DNA of 63,324 nt, counting the filler, from Candidatus Hydrogenedentota bacterium (GTDB lineage: Bacteria > JBFMHD01): the NCBI GenBank assembly GCA_040752395.1. It is 9 parts of 9 records of this genome, joined end to end, with 100 filler letters (N's around TTAATTAATTAA, not from the genome) between each part and the next. Parts side by side here need not be neighbours in the genome. Positions count along the whole stretch, not along the records: positions 1 to 20,325 come from JBFMHD010000019.1; 8 more parts are not named here. The stretch is one strand, 5' to 3'. Both the position numbers and the translations under genes were made by a program. This document shows positions 1 to 59,669 of this stretch, one piece after another; the first letter of the stretch is position 1; each line of letters begins with the position of its first letter. The notes below the pieces were generated by a model that saw only the letters and a list, made by a program, of their open reading frames with translations, had not been told where the DNA came from and made no database searches.

Positions 1-131
1 CCGGCTGTAGTCCGTAGCCTGTAGCCTGTAGCCAACATATCATCCTTAGTTTTTCATACTTTGTGCCTTTGTGCCTCTGTGCCTCTTGCTTCTACTTGAT
101 ATCATCAGAGTTACAATGTTTTTCAGAGGAG
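1..131 (+). repeat. Modular intergenic element (partial copy with inverted internal block), ending in the lpxC Shine-Dalgarno
   Basis: CCGGCTGTAGTCCGTAGCCTGTAGCC block, an inverted copy of the GGCACAAA/TATGAAAAACTAAAGATGATATG block, then the shared terminus TTGATAT..AGAGTTACAATGTTTTTCAGAGGAG. Confidence 0.9.
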
Positions 132-140
132 GTTTACGCC

Positions 141-1439
141 ATTCAAAGGACTATAAAAAAAGAGGTTGAATTCAAAGGTAAGGGTCTGCATACAGGAACC
201 GATACGAGAGTGGTTCTAAAGCCCGCTAAACCAAATACAGGTATAATCTTTATTAGAAAAGATTTACCAGAAGAACCGGTTATTGAGGCTATAGGTAATA
301 ATGTTGTGGATTCAGATAGGGGAACGGTTCTTGGAGCATCGTCTGTCAAGATTCGCACAGTTGAACATTTGCTCTCGGTATGTGCAGGCTTATTTATTGA
401 TAATCTCTATATAGATGTTTATGGCGAGGAGATACCTGCATTTGATGGGAGTGCAAAAGAGCTGGTGGATGAGATTATTAAAGTTGGTTTTGACGATGAA
501 CACATAGCAAAACAGATTTACAGGCTAAAAGAACCAATATTTATGAAAGAAGGCGAGAGTTTATTAATCGCTTTACCTTCGAATGAGTTGACTGTTCAAA
601 TGACCATACAACATAATAAAACTACAAATATTCTACAATACAAGAATATAAAAATAACAGAGGAGAATTTTATAAAGGAGATAGCGCCTGCAAGGACTTA
701 TGGATTCTTTGAAGAGATAGAGGAATTAAGGAGCAGAGGATTGATAAAAGGTGGTGAACTTTCTAATGCCATAGTTATTACAAAAGACGGTATAATGAAT
801 AAAGAAGGGTTAAGATTTGAGGACGAGTTTGTAAGGCATAAGATACTTGATTTGTTAGGTGATTTGAAGCTACTCGGTGCTGATATCTGTGCAAACATTA
901 TAGGTATAAAATCAGGTCATAAATTAAATCTAAAATTTGTAAAAAAAATATTACGATTATATCAAATAGATGCTTCTCAATATTTGAAAATACCTGATAT
1001 CGGCGAAGAACAACTTGATATAAAAGAGATAAAAAAGATACTACCTCATCGCTATCCATTTCTTCTGGTTGACAGGATATTATCGATAGACGGTGATGAA
1101 AAAATTATAGGAGTAAAGAATGTTACTATTAATGAAGAATTTTTTCAGGGACATTTCCCGAATTATCCTATAATGCCCGGCGTCTTAATAGTTGAAGCCA
1201 TGGCTCAGGTCGGTGGCGTTTTACTCCTTTCGAAAAAAGAGAACGCTGGCAAAATCGTCTTTTTTATGGGATTGGATAATGTTAAGTTCAGAAGACCCGT
1301 GGTACCAGGTGACCAGATTATATTTGAAGTTGTAAAAATAAAACTAAAAGCTAAAACAGGCGTTATGCACGGCTCCGCCTATGTTAATGGTCAGCTCGCT
1401 GCTGAAGCAGATTTAAAATATTCTATAGTGGATGAATAA
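141..1439 (+). CDS. lpxC-fabZ: Bifunctional LpxC deacetylase / FabZ dehydratase fusion
   Basis: QRTI..GKGLHTG, TVEHLL and HKILDLLGD (LpxC); LPHRYPFLLVD and FFQGHFP..PIMPGVLIVEAMAQ (FabZ). The ORF-track N-terminus is translated repeat; the likely start is ATT at 141, 7 nt after GAGGAGGT. Confidence 0.95.
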   Translation: MQRTIKKEVEFKGKGLHTGTDTRVVLKPAKPNTGIIFIRKDLPEEPVIEAIGNNVVDSDRGTVLGASSVKIRTVEHLLSVCAGLFIDNLYIDVYGEEIPAFDGSAKELVDEIIKVGFDDEHIAKQIYRLKEPIFMKEGESLLIALPSNELTVQMTIQHNKTTNILQYKNIKITEENFIKEIAPARTYGFFEEIEELRSRGLIKGGELSNAIVITKDGIMNKEGLRFEDEFVRHKILDLLGDLKLLGADICANIIGIKSGHKLNLKFVKKILRLYQIDASQYLKIPDIGEEQLDIKEIKKILPHRYPFLLVDRILSIDGDEKIIGVKNVTINEEFFQGHFPNYPIMPGVLIVEAMAQVGGVLLLSKKENAGKIVFFMGLDNVKFRRPVVPGDQIIFEVVKIKLKAKTGVMHGSAYVNGQLAAEADLKYSIVDE

Positions 1440-1441
1440 TT

Positions 1442-2224
1442 ATGTCTGAAATACATAAAACAGCAATAGTATCAAAAAAAGCCGAGATAGGTGAGAACGT
1501 TAAAATCGGACCTTATAGTATAATAAATGACTTTGTTATCATAGGGAACGGTGTTGAGATACAAAATAGTGTTTATGTTGATTCGGGTGTAAAGATTGGG
1601 AATAATTGTAAAATAAGTGTGGGTGCTGTACTTGGTACTCAACCACAGGATACTAAATATAAAGGAGCAACTACCAAAGTCGAGATAGGTGAGAATACAA
1701 TAATAAGAGAATATGCAACGATAAACAGAGGGACAGAGCACGGCGGTGGAATTACAAGGATAGGAAAAGGATGTTACATAATGGCTTATTCTCATATAGC
1801 TCATGATTGTATTTTAGGTAACGAAGTTGTTATGGCTAATGTTGCTACACTTGCAGGACATGTAGTAATTGAAGATTATGCAGTAGTGGGTGGGCTTACG
1901 CCTGTTCATCAATTTGTGAGAATAGGTAAATATGCGTTTATTGGAGGCGCGTCGAGGGTACCGATGGATGTTCTGCCTTTTGTTCGTGCAGCAGGTATCC
2001 CATTAAAAATAATCGGGTTGAATCTTATAGGATTAAAACGCCGCGGTTTTACTTCTGAAAGATTACAGATACTTGAAAAGATTTTTAGATTGTTGCTCCG
2101 ATCCGGCTATAATACCTCAAAAGCAGTGGAGAAGATAAAAGAGAATATCACACTGAACGAAGATGTTGAGAATGTACTTAATTTTATTAAGAACTCTAAA
2201 CGAGGGATTACACGAAGACTTTAG
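1442..2224 (+). CDS. lpxA: UDP-N-acetylglucosamine acyltransferase
   Basis: Hexapeptide repeats, IREYATINRGT, HIAHDC, VHQFVRIG, GLNLIGLKRRGF. Confidence 0.97.
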   Translation: MSEIHKTAIVSKKAEIGENVKIGPYSIINDFVIIGNGVEIQNSVYVDSGVKIGNNCKISVGAVLGTQPQDTKYKGATTKVEIGENTIIREYATINRGTEHGGGITRIGKGCYIMAYSHIAHDCILGNEVVMANVATLAGHVVIEDYAVVGGLTPVHQFVRIGKYAFIGGASRVPMDVLPFVRAAGIPLKIIGLNLIGLKRRGFTSERLQILEKIFRLLLRSGYNTSKAVEKIKENITLNEDVENVLNFIKNSKRGITRRL

Positions 2225-2291: not shown

Positions 2292-2403
2292 TTTTTTTGT
2301 TTCTCGTAATTTCAATATAATGTTGTGTGGTGAGGGTCCCAAGACACGTTCTTTAGTCTTTAGACCTGTTTTTAAAAATTTTGTGCCTTTGTGCCTGAAA
2401 AAT

Positions 2404-3234
2404 ATGTCTTTTAAAAAATTAGGAATAATTGCAGGTAGTGGTGAATACCCGAGAGTAGTTGCAGCAAGGGCTAAAGAAGAAGGGTTTGACGTTTATTGTG
2501 TGGCCCTTTCAAATGATTTTATCGACGATTTAAAAGAAGTATCCTCAGAGATTGTATATTTATCACCAGGTGAATTAGGTAAAATAAAAGATTTTTTTAT
2601 AAAACACAGGTTAAAACGAATCGCACTTACTGGTAAGATAGAAAAGAGGATAATGTATAATACCGTTCCTGATACCGAGGCGTTACGTTTATTGAATAAA
2701 ATTAGTGACCATCGAGACAATTCTATCTTGCAGGGTATATGTGAATATTTTTTAGATTATAGAATAGAGGTCTGTGATTCTACACTTTTTGTAAAAGATT
2801 TAATAATTAAAGAAGGATTAATAGCAGGTAGAGCTCTGGATAGCACAGATTGGGATGAGATTGCATTTGGGTATAGAATGGCAAAAGGTATAGCAGCTCT
2901 TGATATTGGACAGACAGTGGTTGTAAAAAACAGGGCTGTTTGCGCTTCTGAATCCATTGAAGGTACTGATGAAACAATCAGGCGTGGTGCAAGATATGGC
3001 GGTTGTGGAGTTTATATAATAAAAGTATCAAAACCAGATCAGGATATGCGGTTTGATTTACCGGTTATTGGTAAAACTACAATTAGTTTAGCTATAGAAA
3101 ATAAAGCAAGTTGTATCGCTATTGAATCTTTAAAATCTTTATTTTTTCAGAGAGAAGACTCCATTGATTTGGCTAACAAACATAAATTAAGTATAATCGG
3201 GTTACCATATAATTGGGATTATAAATGGAGATAA
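2404..3234 (+). CDS. lpxI: UDP-2,3-diacylglucosamine diphosphatase
   Basis: KLGIIAGSGEYP, DIGQTVVV, ESIEGTD, KPDQDMRFDLPVIG; follows lpxA; start moved to ATG 2404. Confidence 0.93.
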   Translation: MSFKKLGIIAGSGEYPRVVAARAKEEGFDVYCVALSNDFIDDLKEVSSEIVYLSPGELGKIKDFFIKHRLKRIALTGKIEKRIMYNTVPDTEALRLLNKISDHRDNSILQGICEYFLDYRIEVCDSTLFVKDLIIKEGLIAGRALDSTDWDEIAFGYRMAKGIAALDIGQTVVVKNRAVCASESIEGTDETIRRGARYGGCGVYIIKVSKPDQDMRFDLPVIGKTTISLAIENKASCIAIESLKSLFFQREDSIDLANKHKLSIIGLPYNWDYKWR

Positions 3235-3986
3235 TTTTTCTTGGCACAGGGACTGCAATATTTACTAAAAAACGTGGTGCCCCTGGAATAATAATAAAAA
3301 ACAAAAACGAGACATTGCTTTTTGATCCTGGCACAGGCACAGGACAGAGACTTGTTTTAAATAATATTGATCCGCGTGAAATCTCAGCTATATTTATCAC
3401 ACATTTTCATATAGATCATACCGCTGATTTAATACCACTTTTTTTCGCTTTTAAAACACCAGGATATAAACCATATAAAAGATATTTGAATATTTATGGG
3501 CCTGTAGGATTAAGAAGGCTTATATCAGAATTAAAGAAAATTTATGGGGATTGGATCAAGGCAGATGAATATAAAAGAAATTTTGTCGAGTTAAAGAAGC
3601 GTTGTAAAGTAAACACAGAAGAGTTTACGATAGAAACATTTCCAGTACCTCATACAACAACAAGTTTAGGATTTAAAATAAGAGAGCGGAAAACAGGTGT
3701 TGTAGTTTCATATTCAGGTGATACGGGTTTCAGTAGTGGCTTTGCTAAATTTGTTAATAATTCAGATATACTTATTCTTGAGTGTTCCCTACCAGACACT
3801 ATGGCGATAAGAACGCATTTGACACCAAAAGATGTATGCGAGTTTCTCAAATTAGCGGATGTAAACAAAGTGGTTCTTACTCATTTTTATCCTCCAGTAG
3901 ATATACCATCGTATTTTAGAAAAATCAGCAAAATTACAAAAAGAGATATTATTCAGGCTTATGACGGTATGAAAATTAAAATGTAA
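3225..3986 (+). CDS. MBL-fold metallo-hydrolase (RNase Z-like)
   Basis: FLGTG, THFHIDHTAD, YSGDT, LTHFYP. Confidence 0.85.
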   Translation: MEIIFLGTGTAIFTKKRGAPGIIIKNKNETLLFDPGTGTGQRLVLNNIDPREISAIFITHFHIDHTADLIPLFFAFKTPGYKPYKRYLNIYGPVGLRRLISELKKIYGDWIKADEYKRNFVELKKRCKVNTEEFTIETFPVPHTTTSLGFKIRERKTGVVVSYSGDTGFSSGFAKFVNNSDILILECSLPDTMAIRTHLTPKDVCEFLKLADVNKVVLTHFYPPVDIPSYFRKISKITKRDIIQAYDGMKIKM

Positions 3987-4071
3987 CTGATTAGAGGCCA
4001 ATAATTTTATTGACAGAAAGCTTAAAATAGTTATTAAATAAATTAAAATCAAGAAAGGAGGTATGTACTCG

Positions 4072-4137
4072 ATGAGTTGCGGAAAGAAGCAATGTACAAA
4101 GAAGAAACCAGCAAGAAAAAAGGCGGGCAAAAAATAA
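4072..4137 (+). CDS. 21-aa Lys-rich micropeptide MSCGKKQCTKKKPARKKAGKK
   Basis: Strong SD AAGGAGGT (4055-4062) 9 nt before the ATG, TTGACA at 4010, ends in TAA TAA; below the ORF-track cutoff. Confidence 0.55.
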   Translation: MSCGKKQCTKKKPARKKAGKK

Positions 4138-4158
4138 TAATATAGGAGGTCAAGGCTT

Positions 4159-4326
4159 ATGTTAGTAGTTCAGAGGCAAATTAAAGAGGTTATAAAACAA
4201 GCAGGTTTAAATACATCGTCTGAGTTAGCTAAGGAATTAAACAAAGTTGTTGATGAGATAATTAAAAAAGCAATAGAGCGTGCCAGAGCAAATGATAGAA
4301 AAACAGTAAGGTCGTGTGATATATAA
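4159..4326 (+). CDS. Bacterial histone-fold protein, 55 aa, alpha3-truncated (DUF1931-like)
   Basis: MLVVQRQIKEVIKQAGLNTSSELAKELNKVVDEIIKKAIERARANDRKTVRSCDI with the histone L2 motif RKTV...D; SD AGGAGGT; missed by the ORF track. Confidence 0.88.
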   Translation: MLVVQRQIKEVIKQAGLNTSSELAKELNKVVDEIIKKAIERARANDRKTVRSCDI

Positions 4327-4479
4327 TAATAATCACAATCCATAATACTTACAAGGCAACCGTGATTCAGACACTTTCACTTTAGACTTTAGACATCAGA
4401 CTTTTTTGTGTAATTTCTGGCTACTTTCTTCCTTTAAGTCTAACGTCTGATGTCGATGGTCTACTGTTTAAATTGCAGA

Positions 4480-5532
4480 ATGAATAGAGAGATTTTACAA
4501 AAATATTTTCTCCCCCATTTTTTATTTTCAAACAAAGATTTGCTTATAATTCTCATACTAATAATCGTAGTAATATTATTGTTGATTATTACCTTACTTA
4601 TAATAAAATTAAAGAATGTAAAGAGAGTTAAAATAGACAGAGAAATATTATTAAGAAAAATCTTTAATGAAAAAAATATTGACAGAGAAGAAGAAGAACT
4701 TATTAAAAAAATGTCAAGACTCTCAAATTGCGATGAATTATTGATTATAAGTCAATCTGCAATGTTCGAAGTGGGGGTTGATGAGATAATAAAAACCGAG
4801 ATAGAAGTAGATAAAGAGCTGAATGAAAAGATAGGTGGTCTGAGAAAAAAACTTGGTTTTACAAAACATTTATCCAGTACCTACTTGAAATCTTCAAGAC
4901 AATTTAAAACAGGTTCTAAAGTAAAAATATATCTAAATAAAGAAAACTTCAAAGACGGGAGTATAAAAAAAATTGATGAACTCGATTGGCGGATTGAAAT
5001 AAAAGATATAGAAACTATAAAAAAGAGTGGGAAGCAAAATTTTGAGGTTGAGGTCATAAGGCAGGACGATGGGATATATAATATGATTTTACCTGTGAAA
5101 GAGTGTAATATTTCTTTGAATACCATAGTCTTTCCACATACTTTAAAGTTAGAAAGAAAACAGATAAGAGAATATAGAAGATTCAAGTTCGAGACAGAGG
5201 TTATAATTGTTCCTTTATTTACGAGCGAAAATTACAGAGAAGTAGAGTATATGGGTAAAGTAGGGGAATGGGCTGAGGGATATGTCTATAAATCCGTAAC
5301 AAAAGATATATCCGGTGGCGGAATCTCTCTCTCGATAAAAGAGGAGATACCTGAGGCTGAATATTATGCTGTAAAAATATATTTCGAAAAAGATAAACTG
5401 CCGTTTATAATAGCAAAAATAAAACAGAGAGTCGATCTGGAAGATGAGAGTATACTAAGAATGGAATTTTATAACATCCAGCCAGGCATACAGGATAGAA
5501 TTATTAAACAGATGATGGAATACGAAAGATAG
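4480..5532 (+). CDS. Membrane-anchored PilZ-domain (YcgR-like) c-di-GMP receptor
   Basis: N-terminal TM helix; REYRR (RxxxR) and DISGGG (DxSxGG); start uncertain. Confidence 0.8.
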   Translation: MNREILQKYFLPHFLFSNKDLLIILILIIVVILLLIITLLIIKLKNVKRVKIDREILLRKIFNEKNIDREEEELIKKMSRLSNCDELLIISQSAMFEVGVDEIIKTEIEVDKELNEKIGGLRKKLGFTKHLSSTYLKSSRQFKTGSKVKIYLNKENFKDGSIKKIDELDWRIEIKDIETIKKSGKQNFEVEVIRQDDGIYNMILPVKECNISLNTIVFPHTLKLERKQIREYRRFKFETEVIIVPLFTSENYREVEYMGKVGEWAEGYVYKSVTKDISGGGISLSIKEEIPEAEYYAVKIYFEKDKLPFIIAKIKQRVDLEDESILRMEFYNIQPGIQDRIIKQMMEYER

Positions 5533-5627: not shown

Positions 5628-5749
5628 GAGGAGTCGTTATGAGCGTAGTTTGCGCTCTACACTAGTGGGTTATTGCGTTCTTGCGTTATCTTGCCTCTTG
5701 CCTCTTGCTTCTACTTGATATTATTAAGTTACAATGTTTTTCAGAGGAG
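5628..5749 (+). repeat. Modular intergenic element, internally deleted copy
   Basis: Begins GAGGAGTCGTTATGAGCG..GCGCTCTACACT, jumps to the CTCTTGC array, ends TTTTTCAGAGGAG. Confidence 0.9.
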
Positions 5750-5761
5750 GTTTCATTTTTT

Positions 5762-6988
5762 ATGAAAAGAACTTTATGCATTATATTTATTTTTTATTTA
5801 GTCTCACCTTTGATGGGATGGAATACAAAAGTAAAGGATTCAATCATAGAAGATGCGATTAAATCTATATCACCATCAAGAATAGAGGTGTTAGAATCTA
5901 AAAAAGACGCTCTGTTTACAGAACAAGCAAGAAAAGCAGATATTGTATTTTCAAGTTACAGTCAGGCTGCGTATAAATTAAATATAGAAGTTGTTGAACT
6001 TTTTAGGAATGTTACAGATGAAGATGCATACCTTGAACAGTTAGCAGTTATTGTGAATCAGGTGACAGAATTGTTCGACCCGTTTATCATATCAAGAGAA
6101 AGAGGTATTTATGAAACAAGGGACAGAGAATTCCACAATGAGGTCCAAGAGGTTCTTACTGATTTAAGAACCCACCATATAGCACCCTCTTATTACCCCT
6201 ACTCAACCCCATGGATGACACCTTCTTATGGCAACCAGATGATGACTCATCCTTATGCTGTCCAGAGTATTGTCCCTGAAGCGATCAGGGTAGCTGAGTT
6301 GAGAGGGAAAAGAGTTCTGGCTTTGTATTTACGTGGATATAATATCTACGATTTAAAAGGTGAAATTATCGCACTTTATGCTGAAACTGTAAGAACAGTT
6401 GCAAGAGTTATTGATGGTTTTCTTTATTATTATCAAATACGAAACAGGATGATGCCAGCTATGTATGGCTCTGGTATGTATGGTCATAATATTGTGGAGG
6501 TTAAGATTGGTGACTGGTATAAAGAGATAGGAACGTTTTATGGTAAGAAAGTTTCAGGATTGAAAGGATTTGGTAGCATTGAGGTTGAAACAGAAAAGGG
6601 ACAGAAACAGGAACAGGCGATTGAGAATGCTTTAAGGATTGCGCTTGAATCTGAGGCGGTAAGAAAAAATATTAAAAGTTTATATAAGGTTTCTGATAAA
6701 GATATAAATACCTCTGGTATAGAAGTTAAAATCAGGGCAGGTGGTTATTCTCCTTTTGGGCAATATCAGATGATGCCAAATCTCCATTTATTACCTTATC
6801 AAGAACAGTACTCTTATCCTTATGGATATGAAAGTATGTATCCTTATCCAGGTTATTATGGTATGCCTGAACCTTATTATGATTATACGTATGGTATGCC
6901 ATATTACTATGGTTATCAGCCATATTATCCATTATATCCTGAATGGGGTATGTATAATTATCCATACTATTATCCGTATTGGTATTAA
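5762..6988 (+). CDS. Secreted hypothetical protein with a Tyr/Pro/Gly/Met-rich C-terminal tail
   Basis: Signal peptide MKRTLCIIFIFYLVSPLMG; ATG follows the element SD; tail about 40% Tyr. Confidence 0.8.
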   Translation: MKRTLCIIFIFYLVSPLMGWNTKVKDSIIEDAIKSISPSRIEVLESKKDALFTEQARKADIVFSSYSQAAYKLNIEVVELFRNVTDEDAYLEQLAVIVNQVTELFDPFIISRERGIYETRDREFHNEVQEVLTDLRTHHIAPSYYPYSTPWMTPSYGNQMMTHPYAVQSIVPEAIRVAELRGKRVLALYLRGYNIYDLKGEIIALYAETVRTVARVIDGFLYYYQIRNRMMPAMYGSGMYGHNIVEVKIGDWYKEIGTFYGKKVSGLKGFGSIEVETEKGQKQEQAIENALRIALESEAVRKNIKSLYKVSDKDINTSGIEVKIRAGGYSPFGQYQMMPNLHLLPYQEQYSYPYGYESMYPYPGYYGMPEPYYDYTYGMPYYYGYQPYYPLYPEWGMYNYPYYYPYWY

Positions 6989-9008: not shown

Positions 9009-9110
9009 GGCTTCAGGCTCCGAGCTCCGGGCTCCAGCCAGCTGTAGGCCGTAGCCTGTAGCCTGTCCTGATACTTCTCACTTCTTACTTCTTACTTTTT
9101 TATAGGGAGG
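9009..9110 (+). repeat. Modular intergenic element, partial, upstream of acpP
   Basis: GGCTCCAGCC..GTAGCCTGTAGCCTGTCCTGATAC plus CTTCTTA array, ending at SD GGGAGG. Confidence 0.85.
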
Positions 9111-19037: not shown

Positions 19038-19129
19038 GCTGGCTACAGATTGCAGACTACGGGCTCTTCAGGCTCCAGGCTTCGGGCTTTTTGCTCCAGC
19101 CGGCTGTAGTCCGTAGCCCGTAGAAGGAG
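19038..19129 (+). repeat. Modular intergenic element, partial, upstream of pilT
   Basis: GGCTCCA-type array plus GCTCCAGCCGGCTGTAGTCCGTAGCC, ending at SD AAGGAG. Confidence 0.8.
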
Positions 19130-20425: not shown

Positions 20426-20702
20426 GGAGTAGTCATGAGTGCGGGTTGCGCTCTACACTATTGGGTTATTGGGTTATTGGGTTATTGCGTTTTTGCGCTC
20501 TACACAAGGTATGAAAAACTAAAGATGATATGAAAAGAGTCACAAGTCGCAAGTCGTGAGTCAAAACAGGACTCGAGACTCAAGACTCAAGACTTTTCAG
20601 CAGGCTTTTGGCTTTTGGCTCCAGCCGGCTGTACTCCGTAACCTGTAGCCTGTCCTGCTACTTCTCACTTCCCACTTCTTACTTCTTACTTTTTCAGAGG
20701 AG
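20426..20702 (+). repeat. Modular intergenic element, near full-length
   Basis: GGAG..ATGAG..GCGCTCTACAC, TTGGGTTA array, TATGAAAAACTAAAGATGATATG, GACTCAA array, GGCTTTT, GTAGCCT-type block, CTTCTTA, ending TTTTTCAGAGGAG. Confidence 0.92.
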
Positions 20703-25659: not shown

Positions 25660-25821
25660 TTGCTTCTATTTTCTGATACTTCTTACTTTCAAAGGCACAG
25701 AGGCACAAAGGTACAAAGGCACAAAGTATGAAAAACTAAAGATGATATGAAAAGAGTCACAAGTCGCAAGTCGTGAGTCAAAACAGGACTCGAGACTCGA
25801 GACTCAAGACTTTTCAGCAGG
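25660..25821 (+). repeat. Modular intergenic element running into the contig end
   Basis: GGCACAAA array, TATGAAAAACTAAAGATGATATG, GACTCGA/GACTCAA array. Confidence 0.9.
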
Positions 25822-30149: not shown

Positions 30150-30539
30150 TCATATCTCCATTTTAAGTTCCATAAGAACCATAGGAAGTGGCTTGAGTTC
30201 TCTTGAAATCGGGTCAAGAATCATCCCTAATGCTTCTAATGCTGTTGCTCCTAATAAAAACACTCCTTTTTCTCCAAAAACAACAGGTGCGGCACTAACA
30301 ATGCCCTTGTATTCAAAATAAGCATTGCCAACAGGCTTTTTGATTACCTCGCCATTGGCTAATATAAATTCGCGGGAAGACGATGGTTTTATGTCTAAAT
30401 TTTTTAAGATATATTCCGGGACTACAGAATAAATTGCGCCTGAATCTACAAGGAATTTTATCTTTCTTGATTTTTTAAGATGCTCTGGATTAATTACTCT
30501 TGCTTTCAGGAATGTAATAGCCATCTTTAGATTATTCAC
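30150..30539 (-). CDS. Clan AA (retropepsin-like) aspartyl protease
   Basis: FLVDSGAIYSVVP, LANG, LLGATALEALG. Confidence 0.85.
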   Translation of the reverse strand: MNNLKMAITFLKARVINPEHLKKSRKIKFLVDSGAIYSVVPEYILKNLDIKPSSSREFILANGEVIKKPVGNAYFEYKGIVSAAPVVFGEKGVFLLGATALEALGMILDPISRELKPLPMVLMELKMEI

Positions 30540-31268
30540 TCAAAAATATCAAATTTTTAACTCTACGTAAATATTCTTTTGCTCTTTTTTCTTCAGGCTC
30601 AATGCTTAAAATATAATTTACCTCAGCTAGTGCTTTATCGTATCGCTGGAACCTTATCAAATGGTCAATATACTGAAATCTCACCTCTAAATCAACAATT
30701 CTTTTTTTAGGTTCTTCTTTTACTTCTTTTTTTTGTTCTTCTTTCACAAACGAGAGATCGGGTGATGGACTTTTCATATTTACATAGCAAATATTGTTAT
30801 CTTTATTTAATTCAAGAATAACAGGGTTTTTAAAATATAATTTTATTCTTACACCTTTGTTTCCTGTGTGTAATTGTTTAGCGTATACCCGAGCAAGTGG
30901 TCCCTGTTCAAAATCAGCGCTTGTGGGTAAAATCGGGTTTAAGAGACCATCTTTAATATCTATAACTTTAACCATCTCGTCAGGAAATATAATCTCGCTA
31001 AAATCAATGATGCTATTCGAGACTATTAACATTTTGGCTTCTGTAATGCCTGGATAATATTTGATAAGATTAACCTCTTTTTCACAACTAACACCGATGT
31101 TTAGTTCAGGAACAATCTCTATCTCTCCTATCTCCAGAGAAACAAAATGTCCTTTGAATAACCCTTCATTAAAATCTGAGAAATTTATTTTTTCAGGAAC
31201 AAGTTTTATATTAGAATTAGTTGTTAATGAAACCATACCCTTTCTTTTATTTAAATCGACACATCTAT
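30532..31268 (-). CDS. Pilus-associated protein (AMIN-like plus C-terminal TPR), probably 5' partial
   Basis: Frame open to the contig edge; GVRIKLYF; TPR-like C-terminus. Confidence 0.5.
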
Positions 31269-31368
31269 NNNNNNNNNNNNNNNNNNNNNNNNNNNNNNNN
31301 NNNNNNNNNNNNTTAATTAATTAANNNNNNNNNNNNNNNNNNNNNNNNNNNNNNNNNNNNNNNNNNNN

Positions 31369-31530
31369 ACGGTCTGTTTGTTTGTTTCGCACGCTATACG
31401 TGCTTTGTCAGGTGGCTTCAACTTTACAGATTACTCCATAAGTTGCACCTCAAACTAAATCGTTTACAGACTTTTACGATTACTGACACCTTGCACTCAG
31501 TTAGATTTCAAAGAGCTTATCTTGGCACGC
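31369..31530 (-). mobile_element. Probable group II intron 5' end (domain I), cut by the contig end
   Basis: Starts GCGTGCCAAGATAAG (GUGYG variant); nested stems; GAGGTGCAACTTATGGA-GTAA-TCTGTAAAGTTGAAGCCACCTGACAA resembles domain Ic with a GNRA loop. Confidence 0.55.
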
Positions 31531-35552: not shown

Positions 35553-35939
35553 TCAGCTAGTCTTTACTACAATGTCGCTTATAATATTAGCAGCTTCATT
35601 ACAGCGGTCAGCAGCATTCGAAAGATGCCTGTAAACCTCTCGGTATTTTAATACAAAAATAACATCAGTGGAGTTAAAAAGTTCTGCAAGCGCTTCTCTA
35701 TACCTGTGCTCAATAAAATTCTCAGCCTTTTTTGCTCTAACCACGTGTTCCTCAACTGCTTGTGGATTATCATTTAAAAGAGTTATAGAACAAGTAATCT
35801 CTTTAGCAGCATTAGCAATCGCATTTATTATATCCTTAATAAAAATGTTTGGAATTATCTTGAAAAGTCGCACTTCTTCAACAGTAGATTTAGCGTAATC
35901 AATCATATCCTCGGTTTTTTCTGCATGCTCTTTTAGCAT
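35553..35939 (-). pseudogene. DUF47/PhoU-like phosphate transport regulator, apparently internally deleted
   Basis: DMIDYAKSTVEE, KYREVYRHLSNAAD, DIVVK; only 128 aa; N-terminal FFKMLKEHAEK joins directly to the mid-protein motif. Confidence 0.6.
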
Positions 35940-35952
35940 CTTAAAAAAATCC

Positions 35953-36083
35953 CTCCTCTGAAAAACGCTGTAACTCTAATGATATCAAGTAGAAGCAAGA
36001 AGCAAGAGGCAAGAAGCAAGATAACGGAAGAAGTGAGAGGTATCAGGACAGGCTACAGGCTACGGGCTACCCGTAGTCTGCAA
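35953..36083 (-). repeat. Modular intergenic element, 3' half
   Basis: Reverse complement of GTAGCCTGTCCTGATAC..CTTCTTG array..TTTTTCAGAGGAG. Confidence 0.9.
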
Positions 36084-36789: not shown

Positions 36790-36977
36790 TCGCAAGTCGT
36801 GAGTCAAAACAGGACTCAAGACTCAAGACTTTTCAGCAGGCTCTGGGCTTTTGTCTCCAGCCGGCTATAGTCCGTAGCCTGTAGCCTGTCCTGATACTTC
36901 TCACTTCTTCCGTTATCTTGCTTCTTGCCTCTTGCTTCTACTTGATATTATTATAGTTACAATGTTTTTCAGAGGAG
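36790..36977 (+). repeat. Modular intergenic element at the contig start
   Basis: GACTCAA, GTAGCCT and CTTCTTG blocks plus terminus TTTTTCAGAGGAG; no start codon follows this copy. Confidence 0.9.
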
Positions 36978-37044
36978 ATATACTAACTATTAACTTTCAA
37001 CATAATTATTGACATAACAAAGTGGAAAAAGTAAAAATTAGATA

Positions 37045-37475: not shown

Positions 37476-37590
37476 TCTGGAGTCTTGAGTTTTTAGCTGG
37501 AGCCCATAGCCTGTACCTTGTCCTGATACTTCTTACTTCTCACTTCTTACTTCGTGAAATTATTAGAGTTTACAAAGTTTTTTGGAGAGA
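37476..37590 (+). repeat. Degenerate modular element
   Basis: GTCCTGATACTTCTTACTTCTCAC and decayed terminus TTAGAGTTTACAAAGTTTTTTGGAG. Confidence 0.7.
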
Positions 37591-38228: not shown

Positions 38229-38394
38229 ATGAGACTTAATAAAAGAGAGTTAGAAATTATTATTAATGAGGCAAAATCAATCTTTGGGGAGGATGCAGAG
38301 ATTAGATTATTTGGCAGCCGCACTTCAATACTCAATAGATAAGATTCAAAAATTATTCCCATTAAGTAAAGAAAAGATTGAAGATATTAAAGAA
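38229..38394 (+). pseudogene. Collapsed MNT (nucleotidyltransferase) / HEPN-type toxin-antitoxin remnant
   Basis: MRLNKRELEIIINEAKSIFGEDAEIRLFGSR, then in another frame LQYSIDKIQKLFPLSKEKIEDI, cut by the element. Confidence 0.6.
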
Positions 38395-38758
38395 GGAGTC
38401 AACATGAGCGCGGTTTGCGCTCTACACTATTGGGTTCTTGGGTTCTTGGGTTATTGCGTTTTTGGGTTTTTGCGCTCTACACAAAGCATGAAAAACTAAA
38501 GATGATATGAAAAGAGTCGTGAGTCAAAACAGGACTCAAGACTCAAGACTTTTCAGCCAGGCTTTTGGCTTCTGGCTCCAGCCGGCTGTAGTCCGTAGCC
38601 TGTAGCCTGTCCTGATACCTCTCACTTCCCACTTCTTACTTCTTACTTTTTTCGTTATCTTGCTTCTTGCTTCTTGCTTCTTTCGTTATCTTTCTTTCCG
38701 TTATCTTGCCTCTTGCTTCTATTTGATATTATTAGAGTTAGAATGTTTTTCAGAGGAG
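38395..38758 (+). repeat. Modular intergenic element, longest copy (about 365 bp), ending in the rpsC SD
   Basis: All core modules in order, from GGAGTCAACATGAGCGCG to TTTTTCAGAGGAG. Confidence 0.93.
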
Positions 38759-38764
38759 AGTCTA

Positions 38765-41923: not shown

Positions 41924-42094
41924 TAGAGGCAAGAGGCAAGATAACGATATTTCTTGCGTTATTGGGTTATTGCGTTTTTGCGTTCTTGCGCTCTACACAA
42001 TATATGAAAAACTAAAGATGATATGAAAAGAGTCGTGAGTCAAAACAGGACTCGAGACTCAAGACTCAAGACTTTTCAGCAGGCTTTTGGCTTT
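41924..42094 (+). repeat. Modular intergenic element after rpsN, running into the contig end
   Basis: Inverted GAGGCAA array, TTGCGTTA array, TATGAAAAACT block, GACTCAA array. Confidence 0.9.
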
Positions 42095-47394: not shown

Positions 47395-47482
47395 CTCCTC
47401 TGAAAAACGTTGTAACTCTAATAATATCAAATAGAAGCAAGAGGCAAGAAGCAAGAAGCAAGATAACGGAAGAAGTGAGAGG
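47395..47482 (-). repeat. Modular element terminus supplying the rplO SD; runs to the contig end
   Basis: Reverse complement of CTTCTTG array..TTGATATTATTAGAGTTACAACGTTTTTCAGAGGAG. Confidence 0.92.
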
Positions 47483-59427: not shown

Positions 59428-59435
59428 TCATAGGT

Positions 59436-59669
59436 CTCCTCTGAAAAACGTTGTAACTCTAATAATATCAAATAGAGGCAAGAAGCAAGATAACGGAAGA
59501 AGTAAGAGGTATCAGGACAGGCTACAGGCTACGGACTACAGCCGGCTGGAGTCAAAAGCCCAAAGCCTGCTGAAAAGTCTTGAGTCTTGAGTCTTGAGTC
59601 TCGAGTCCTGTTTTGACTCACGACTCTCGACTCTTTGACTTCTATACCCCATCCCCTATACCCTATCCC
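59436..59669 (-). repeat. Modular element supplying the ffh SD
   Basis: GGGGATA/GGGTATA array, GACTCAA array, GTAGCCT, CTTCTTG, terminus TTTTTCAGAGGAG. Confidence 0.92.

Follow-up and report, generated by a model that had tools for sequence, protein, structure and literature searches.

Bacterial histones were recognised recently, and to our knowledge the role of their positively charged N-terminal tails is open, the tails not having been tested. A locus that bears on this role lies on a 63,324-nt stretch of DNA from Candidatus Hydrogenedentota bacterium (assembly GCA_040752395.1; length including filler, G+C 34.9%), hereafter the window. There, a short open reading frame (sORF) of 21 codons, MSCGKKQCTKKKPARKKAGKK, stands directly upstream of a gene for a 55-residue histone that begins at its fold, and each of the two has its own Shine-Dalgarno (SD) site, denoted as SD1 and SD2. 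The locus raises the question of whether the sORF encodes a histone tail as a separate peptide. The ORF that follows it encodes a genuine bacterial histone. Judged by its sequence, the sORF lacks none of the marks intrinsic to translated cistrons and is probably translated. Our preferred explanation is a co-transcribed pair of a translated free-tail peptide and a tail-less histone of the face-to-face (FtF) type; we hold this whole chain of inference tentatively, at clearly less than even chances.

The sORF and its setting

All the elements listed in a preliminary description of the locus, namely TTGACA, an SD site, an sORF with nine Lys, one Arg and two Cys residues, the TAA TAA stops, a second SD site and a histone ATG 87 nt from that of the sORF, were found at the places given for them (Table 1). 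The sORF contains no acidic residue and shares one frame with the histone. It ends with TAA at 4135–4137, followed at once by a second TAA at 4138–4140; SD2 begins 4 nt past this second stop, which itself precedes the histone ATG by 18 nt. The gap between the two cistrons amounts to 21 nt, and the last sense codon of the sORF is separated from the histone ATG by 24 nt. With X written for each stop, this frame translates continuously as ...AGKK-XX-YRRSRL-MLVVQ.... A second ATG at 4063 abuts SD1 and is no usable start because it touches the site directly. The histone ORF is closed in turn by three in-frame TAA codons (4324–4332).

Several properties set the sORF apart within the window. Among 598 ATG-started ORFs of 12–45 residues on both strands, five have a Lys plus Arg fraction (K+R) of at least 0.40, two of which are the sORF read from its two ATGs; the only SD-led one is the sORF from ATG 4072, and its K+R of 0.48 is the highest of all 598. 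The SD1 sequence AAGGAGGT is found once on each strand. SD strength was taken as the longest match to this sequence within 17 bases 5' of the listed start of the 43 long ORFs. By this measure, 23 of the 43 have no match of at least four bases, eight match over four bases, eight over five and four over six, so that the maximum of six stands against eight for the sORF and seven for the histone. The two strongest SD sites of the window are thus SD1 and SD2, located 89 nt apart. Tandem in-frame stops end both the sORF and the histone, compared with 2/43 long ORFs. This combination of SD, charge, stops and placement is unusual.

The putative promoter hexamer TTGACA sits within a 68-nt spacer of 22% G+C, 3' of the upstream gene. 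A consensus promoter scan yielded eight promoter-like sites versus 3.4 ± 1.9 in shuffles; TTGACA at 4010–4015 is missing from its list because no hexamer on its 3' side satisfies the -10 rule of the scan. A motif scan of 3800–4600 gave no terminator-like site.

Table 1. Positions of the sORF–histone unit and of other features of the window
Feature	Position	Strand	Remarks
-35-like hexamer TTGACA	4010–4015	+	perfect consensus; putative promoter role
Candidate -10 hexamer TATTAA	4032–4037	+	16 nt past TTGACA; weak, putative
Alternative -10 hexamer TTAAAT	4034–4039	+	weak; sequence reading
Alternative promoter pair TTAAAA and TAAAAT	4022–4027 and 4044–4049	+	weak; consensus scan
SD1, AAGGAGGT	4055–4062	+	9 nt ahead of sORF ATG 4072; 8-base match
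sORF, MSCGKKQCTKKKPARKKAGKK	4072–4137, second TAA to 4140	+	21 codons; net charge +10
SD2, AGGAGGT	4144–4150	+	8 nt ahead of histone ATG; 7-base match
Histone ORF	4159–4326, stops to 4332	+	55 residues; tail-less bacterial histone, filed as FtF type (α3-truncated)
Fused LpxC-FabZ gene	63–1439		NF009667, E 4.9e-147
LpxA gene	1442–2224		
LpxI gene	2320–3234		
ORF with Tyr/Pro/Gly/Met-rich tail	5762–6988		408 residues, 7-base SD; 435-residue form from TTG 5681
ORF adjoining group II intron match	30532–31236		234 residues
Group II intron D1-D4 match	31362–31502	-	RF02003, 62.3 bits
Copies of dispersed repeat	1–137, 5629–5765, 9014–9100, 19075–19123, 20426–20694, 25699–25821, 35939–36070, 36790–36983, 37495–37582, 38394–38759, 41951–42094, 47395–47482, 59435–59640		

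The histone and its type

In a sequence search of solved structures, the histone ORF best matched HBb (Bd0055 of Bdellovibrio bacteriovorus) through the entries 8FVX (E 5e-7, 42% identity over 55 aligned residues) and 8CMP (E 5.6e-7), followed by HLp of Leptospira perolatii (9QT0, E 4.2e-4) and HTkC (9F2C, E 0.0094). The NCBIfam archaeal histone superfamily model gave E 1.7e-6 but, with 28 bits, fell short of its cut-off of 50, and the Pfam families CBFD_NFYB_HMF (E 0.025) and DUF1931 (E 0.069) also scored below cut-off. A word-index protein search with the histone returned no match. When 1.84 billion representatives were searched exhaustively with HMMER, 135 proteins were obtained at E <= 0.001, comprising 100 single folds, 34 doublets and one other. 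The closest single-fold relative shares 55% identity over the full fold, and a 39-residue fragment (P0123) shares 56%.

The AlphaFold2 model, based on 31 relatives, has a pLDDT of 91.9 and contains helices at residues 5–14 and 23–44 and a one-turn α3 at 52–54, corresponding to the α3-truncated fold of α1, a long α2 and an α3 of about one turn. Foldseek placed the model closest to HLp (TM-score 0.91, rmsd 0.9 Å, 35% identity), HBb (0.89) and HTkC (0.89), with a range over these three of 0.88–0.92, and archaeal and eukaryotic histones ranked behind. The RxTxxxxD motif is present as R47, T49 and D54; all 31 aligned relatives keep T49 and D54, and nearly all keep R47. The histone call of the preliminary description is borne out by the HBb match, the confident model and the likeness to HLp.

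Two main groups of α3-truncated histones, the FtF type and the HBb-type "bacterial dimers", are distinguished in the excerpted text of Schwab et al. (2024, PMC11390915). That excerpt takes as hallmarks of FtF histones a predicted tetramer and a conserved Arg and Asn at the dimer–dimer contact (R48 and N52 of the logo, R41 and N45 in D4GZE0), whereas the bacterial dimers are without both residues. According to a partial text of a recent preprint on HTkC (bioRxiv 10.64898/2025.12.06.692711), an FtF histone that loses this Arg becomes a dimer like HBb, the Arg being decisive in HTkC. The window histone carries R41 and N45, as does HLp, whereas HBb has Ser and Asp at these positions. The R...N signature is widespread among its relatives (85/100 single-fold representatives).

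A four-copy complex model of the window histone scored 0.93, while the best of three controls scored 0.00. At least 98% of contacts were common to the runs, the partner pLDDT was at least 93, and the model consists of a handshake dimer plus confident dimer–dimer contacts at residues 40–41, 44–45, 51 and 53–54. The mark for this score is passed by 20/30 solved pairs and 1/23 single chains; our run, with its own alignment and four copies, lies outside the calibration of the score. Since solved FtF tetramers exist, the pass may reflect likeness or memory and not independent evidence. The protein departs from the bacterial dimers in having both R41 and N45 and a passing tetramer model, although HBb is its best sequence match. 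On its sequence signature and the predicted tetramer, the window histone is filed as FtF type, its nearest solved-structure sequence being that of HBb.

HLp (9QT0–9QT2) is the characterised bacterial FtF histone, with HTkC as its archaeal counterpart. It forms a tetramer that wraps DNA, as stated in an excerpt of PMC12701072. The two proteins share the one-turn α3 fold and the R...N.R.T....D signature (R41, N45, R47, T49 and D54 in the window histone), and the tetramer model makes its contacts via the same region. Their sequence similarity is just E 4.2e-4. In addition, HLp bears a short N-terminal extension on its own chain, the first six residues of which are unseen in the crystals as far as the excerpted source goes, whereas the window histone starts at the fold and a 21-residue polycation is encoded in a separate upstream cistron. 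HBb resembles the window histone in its truncated α3 and its RKTxxxxD motif, but differs at the positions of R41 and N45 and as a single gene with no upstream peptide described. The window histone appears as a new, rather isolated FtF member, and its lineage has no close relative among the matches listed from the searched collections.

A possible free histone tail: support and objections

Among the 85 single-fold relatives with the FtF signature, 16 have a basic N-terminal extension, 43 an extension of at most five residues, and 26 an extension of another kind, several of these resembling wrong starts or signal peptides. A stricter rule for basic tails retained 9 of all 100 single folds. The fused tails include MAGKKKTTKKQPRE-M, MAGKKKAKKELE-M, MAKKKAAKKGV-M, MAKKKKKKSGA- and MARKVKKAKRAKKGKKAKGAKVDVG-, and the genomes of one phylum sample contribute MAKGKAKGKAKTKD-M and MAKGKKKE-M. 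In these relatives, Met often restarts the fold after the tail, as at the start of the window histone. Bacterial FtF tails are described as common, without conserved sequence and in "the majority" positively charged in the excerpt of Schwab et al. (2024, PMC11390915). Tails with a composition like that of the sORF stand directly before the same fold in such histones, but there within one polypeptide, whereas here the TAA TAA stops and SD2 hold tail and fold apart. The same excerpt states that α3 histones are single-gene operons.

At the locus itself, the histone begins directly at the fold and has no N-tail; a tailed one-chain form was not encountered, the TAA TAA at 4135–4140 standing between the two parts. 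Lys/Ala/Pro-rich H1-like tails occur on bacterial nucleoid proteins, an example being the disordered C-terminus of MDP1 in mycobacteria. By description, the KKPARKKAGKK stretch of the sORF resembles such low-complexity DNA-binding tails, which differ in being fused to an HU fold and in being much longer than 21 residues. The split arrangement of tail and fold differs from described histone loci and is represented by this one locus. We found no description of a two-gene unit of this kind in the full text of open-access papers and preprints, in agreement with the statement of the preliminary description that none was known.

Four of the related loci (L168, L170, L171 and L172), from genomes of the 401-genome phylum sample, have short fused Lys-rich tails, MAKGKAKGKAKTKD-, MAKGKSKD-, MAKGKKKE- and MAKEKQKE-. 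A conserved Met opens the fold in them, so that by the choice of start such a gene could give a tailed as well as a tail-less product. Six other relatives (P0022, P0070, P0099, P0106, P0004 and P0021) begin with a hydrophobic stretch resembling a signal peptide and continue into a conserved ...ARSSKPKE-IVVVGSKVK junction; exported-looking histone-fold proteins would be odd.

Since 16/85 relatives carry fused Lys-rich tails, a detached tail is plausible and the fission of a tailed histone is a reasonable origin. In the explanation that we prefer, a σ70-like promoter would direct one mRNA for both cistrons. The first cistron, behind the 8-base SD1, would yield a 21-residue polycation, and ribosomes terminating 4 nt before SD2 and 18 nt before the histone ATG would permit both products to be made together. 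By analogy with HLp, handshake dimers of the histone would pair into a tetramer that wraps or compacts DNA. The sORF peptide would be the free counterpart of the Lys-rich N-tail of the relatives, and its charge of +10 may neutralise that of the DNA beside the histone. In-frame fission of a tailed histone gene would be the most likely origin, given that the two ORFs share a frame and lie 24 nt apart and that fused tails occur in the family. The adjacent stops, the exactly placed SD2 and the intact G-rich SD1 fit a recent accident poorly, which favours a maintained two-cistron state. The layout of the locus, the identity and type of the histone and the presence of fused tails in relatives are shown; a single transcript, translation of the sORF with coupled output, the fission origin and any effect that the peptide has on the histone or on DNA are inferred. 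The particular proposal that the peptide acts in trans, as a free tail kept in fixed proportion to the tail-less FtF histone and binding DNA or the tetramer, is doubtful. The CX4C pair of the sORF (C3 and C8) and Cys53 of the histone, located at the tetramer interface, could tether the peptide via a metal or a disulfide.

If the preferred explanation is true, the locus would represent a gene fission that gave a functional micropeptide, and its separate tail and fold cistrons would constitute a natural experiment on prokaryotic histone tail function. With a tail that acts in trans, tail dosage could be set apart from core dosage, and no domain of life would have an earlier example of a histone "tail in trans". 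If the sORF instead serves expression alone or is a relic, the locus still provides a clean new member of the FtF family.

A substantial body of observations weighs against the free-tail explanation, beginning with conservation. A metagenome scan with the histone profile (8-row alignment) gave 308 confirmed relatives, the best 80 of which, at 40–55% identity, were taken; 75 of these 80 loci have at least 120 nt 5' of the histone. In none of the 75 was a comparable SD-led Lys-rich sORF present. A loose filter (8–60 residues, K+R >= 0.33, few acidic residues) passed 13 small ORFs in these loci, none of which combines the length, charge and SD, or resembles MSCGKKQCTKKKPARKKAGKK. A comparable upstream sORF was likewise absent from another 18 loci, of which two phylum samples supplied 16 and viral contigs two distant ones; in the three phylum samples, the profile had matches in 5/301, 11/401 and 0/87 genomes. 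The arrangement is therefore found in 0/93 related loci (75 + 18), among relatives at no more than 55% identity. The tblastn search of the peptide against the fetched loci and the window gave low-complexity noise only and no second copy. The read-through query gave four candidates, of which one is a 57-residue fold-only protein, and no tailed relative. The search that the preliminary description had proposed, for a conserved basic sORF upstream of related histones or a fused form related to this peptide, was thus negative in the loci covered. Since the upstream-sORF, tblastn and read-through checks were all negative, the arrangement is not a family feature at this distance. None of the genomes searched has a histone closer than 48% identity, and no relative above 55% was found among the matches listed, beyond which closer ones may exist; accordingly, the sORF could be a one-off.

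Comparisons of other genes gave no close relative either. LpxI reached at best 42% identity in species genomes among the matches listed, and PcrA no more than 42% in five of the LpxI-matched genomes. A histone occurs in 0/80 of the LpxI loci listed, and none of the histone loci L081–L176 (L177 and L178 lying outside the set) has LpxA, LpxI, MBL-fold, PilZ, Tyr/Pro-rich or FabD neighbours. As a point of record on the samples, two genomes (G001 and G004, loci L001 and L007), a metagenome-assembled genome labelled uncultured Planctomycetia and one labelled Candidatus Omnitrophota, share the same 401-genome phylum sample, so that one label conflicts with the collection taxonomy.

The objections extend to the tail itself. 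With 43/85 FtF-type relatives being tail-less, the histone needs no tail. The best likeness between the sORF and a fused tail, GKKQCTKKKP against GKKKTTKKQP of P0027 (7/10 residues), is beaten by 7/2000 shuffles when this pair is taken alone, but 258/2000 shuffles do as well over all 16 tails, so the likeness is not significant and is compositional. Thus, the resemblance to histone tails noted in the preliminary description stands for composition, which is like that of the tails of the 16/85 relatives, and fails for sequence; its suggestion of a fissioned tailed histone keeps a reasonable basis in the fused tails, with no fused form akin to the peptide among them. At the level of the DNA, a purine-rich leader in a genome of 35% G+C makes Lys codons cheap, 21 open codons are not rare, a shared frame has a 1-in-3 chance, and the basic spacer YRRSRL is merely the SD translated as Arg-Arg. 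Many AGGAGG-like runs elsewhere in the window have no gene behind them, so an SD motif alone proves nothing. The Lys codons of the sORF are AAG in 5/9 cases versus 23% (329/1419) in the long ORFs, a weak deviation (binomial P = 0.036); since the histone itself has six AAA and one AAG, AAG use is not an expression signature here.

Other explanations and neighbouring features

The sORF may act solely as an expression device, in which a strong SD and a short, A-rich, unstructured cistron load ribosomes for re-initiation at the histone ATG 18 nt past the stops, by translational coupling or as a standby site, and the peptide itself has no role. We consider this possible though rather unlikely. The two strongest SD sites of the window at such close spacing and the stops 4 nt before SD2 would suit such a device, the excerpt of PMC11390915 counts the genes of FtF and HBb histones with those of highest expression, and the peptide has no relatives in any search made. 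A terminating ribosome would also open a weak local hairpin over SD2 and the histone ATG, but this hairpin (z = -0.76) and the whole leader (z = +1.0) fold no better than shuffles. Moreover, the histone already owns a 7-base SD, no such device is present at the 93 related loci, and both the composition match to the fused tails of relatives and the shared frame are left unexplained.

The same shared frame and 24-nt distance are what a decaying relic would leave. In this case, nonsense mutations in a tailed gene, for instance of the Lys codon AAA, one step from TAA, would have left the fold to be made from an internal Met and the tail as a functionless remnant. Relatives do show a fused tail followed by an internal Met at the fold start, and no counterpart of the sORF is conserved in the 93 loci. 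Nevertheless, it takes more than one or two mutations to produce adjacent stops and, between these and the Met, an exactly placed 7-base SD, and the sORF is free of frameshift and internal stop. The G-rich 8-base SD1 is also intact amid surroundings of 22–38% G+C, where quick decay would be expected if it were unused. A relic is an unlikely account of the locus.

We regard chance as still less probable. A purine-rich leader with an ATG and 21 open codons could arise by accident where G+C is 34.9%, small ATG ORFs number 598 and Lys takes 8.3% of codons, with the SD-like run being fortuitous or a ribosome standby site; the many geneless AGGAGG-like runs and the lack of a homologue wherever we searched agree with this. 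Against it stand an 8-base SD that occurs once per strand and at a working distance from the ATG, the top K+R fraction of 598 small ORFs, the tandem stops, and the gene that follows in the same frame, whose family includes fused tails of just that composition.

Very short Lys/Arg-rich ribosomal proteins exist, and the size, charge and strong SD of the sORF would fit a highly expressed small basic protein of the ribosome- or RNA-associated kind that merely shares the histone operon, as would its CX4C pair, found in 0/16 fused tails. However, the peptide matches no family in Pfam (E <= 1) or NCBIfam (E <= 10), searches of low power at 21 residues, and no ribosomal or translation genes lie nearby, where lipid A genes are found together with those of an MBL-fold hydrolase and a PilZ protein. 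We hold this to be the least probable account.

Several other readings were rejected. Frameshifting or sliding on the A6 run fails because both shifted frames run into stops before the histone ATG. Recoding of TAA is discounted as TAA, TGA and TAG all end long ORFs, TAA ending 22/43. A leader-peptide attenuator finds no terminator-like site in 3800–4600, folds with z-scores of -0.76, -0.26 and +1.0, and no Rfam family; no Rfam element was found in the region. A 92-residue minus-strand ORF at 3852–4130 is taken as spurious, being a Phe-rich antisense of the purine-rich leader that overlaps the end of the upstream gene. On the 3' side of the histone, a pyrimidine-rich segment at 4414–4442 is 73–81% complementary to 4039–4060 (the SD1 leader) and 4098–4118 (within the sORF). 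The minimum-energy fold of 4040–4450 pairs SD1 with 4425–4432, but at z = +1.0 it is no better than shuffles, and RNA pairing of this segment with SD1 or the sORF is unsupported by the fold statistics.

Upstream of the unit, the lipid A genes form a row of a fused LpxC-FabZ, LpxA and LpxI. The adjacency of LpxA and LpxI is common to 37 of the 80 LpxI loci listed, whereas the MBL-fold gene and the histone unit are not shared. The MBL-fold gene beside this row is an RNase Z-like match below the NCBIfam cut-off.

Elsewhere in the window, self-BLAST revealed a dispersed intergenic repeat family with at least 12 copies of approximately 50–280 nt and 72–98% identity, in both orientations and mostly just 5' of genes. 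It does not overlap the sORF–histone unit and may be a MITE- or REP-like element. The 408-residue ORF with a 7-base SD has an extreme Tyr/Pro/Gly/Met-rich C-terminal tail, …YPYGYESMYPYPGYYGMPEPYYDYTYGMPYYYGYQPYYPLYPEWGMYNYPYYYPYWY; it matched no NCBIfam family and, in its 435-residue form, no Pfam family. A match to the group II intron D1-D4 model lies on the minus strand and adjoins the 234-residue ORF (Table 1).

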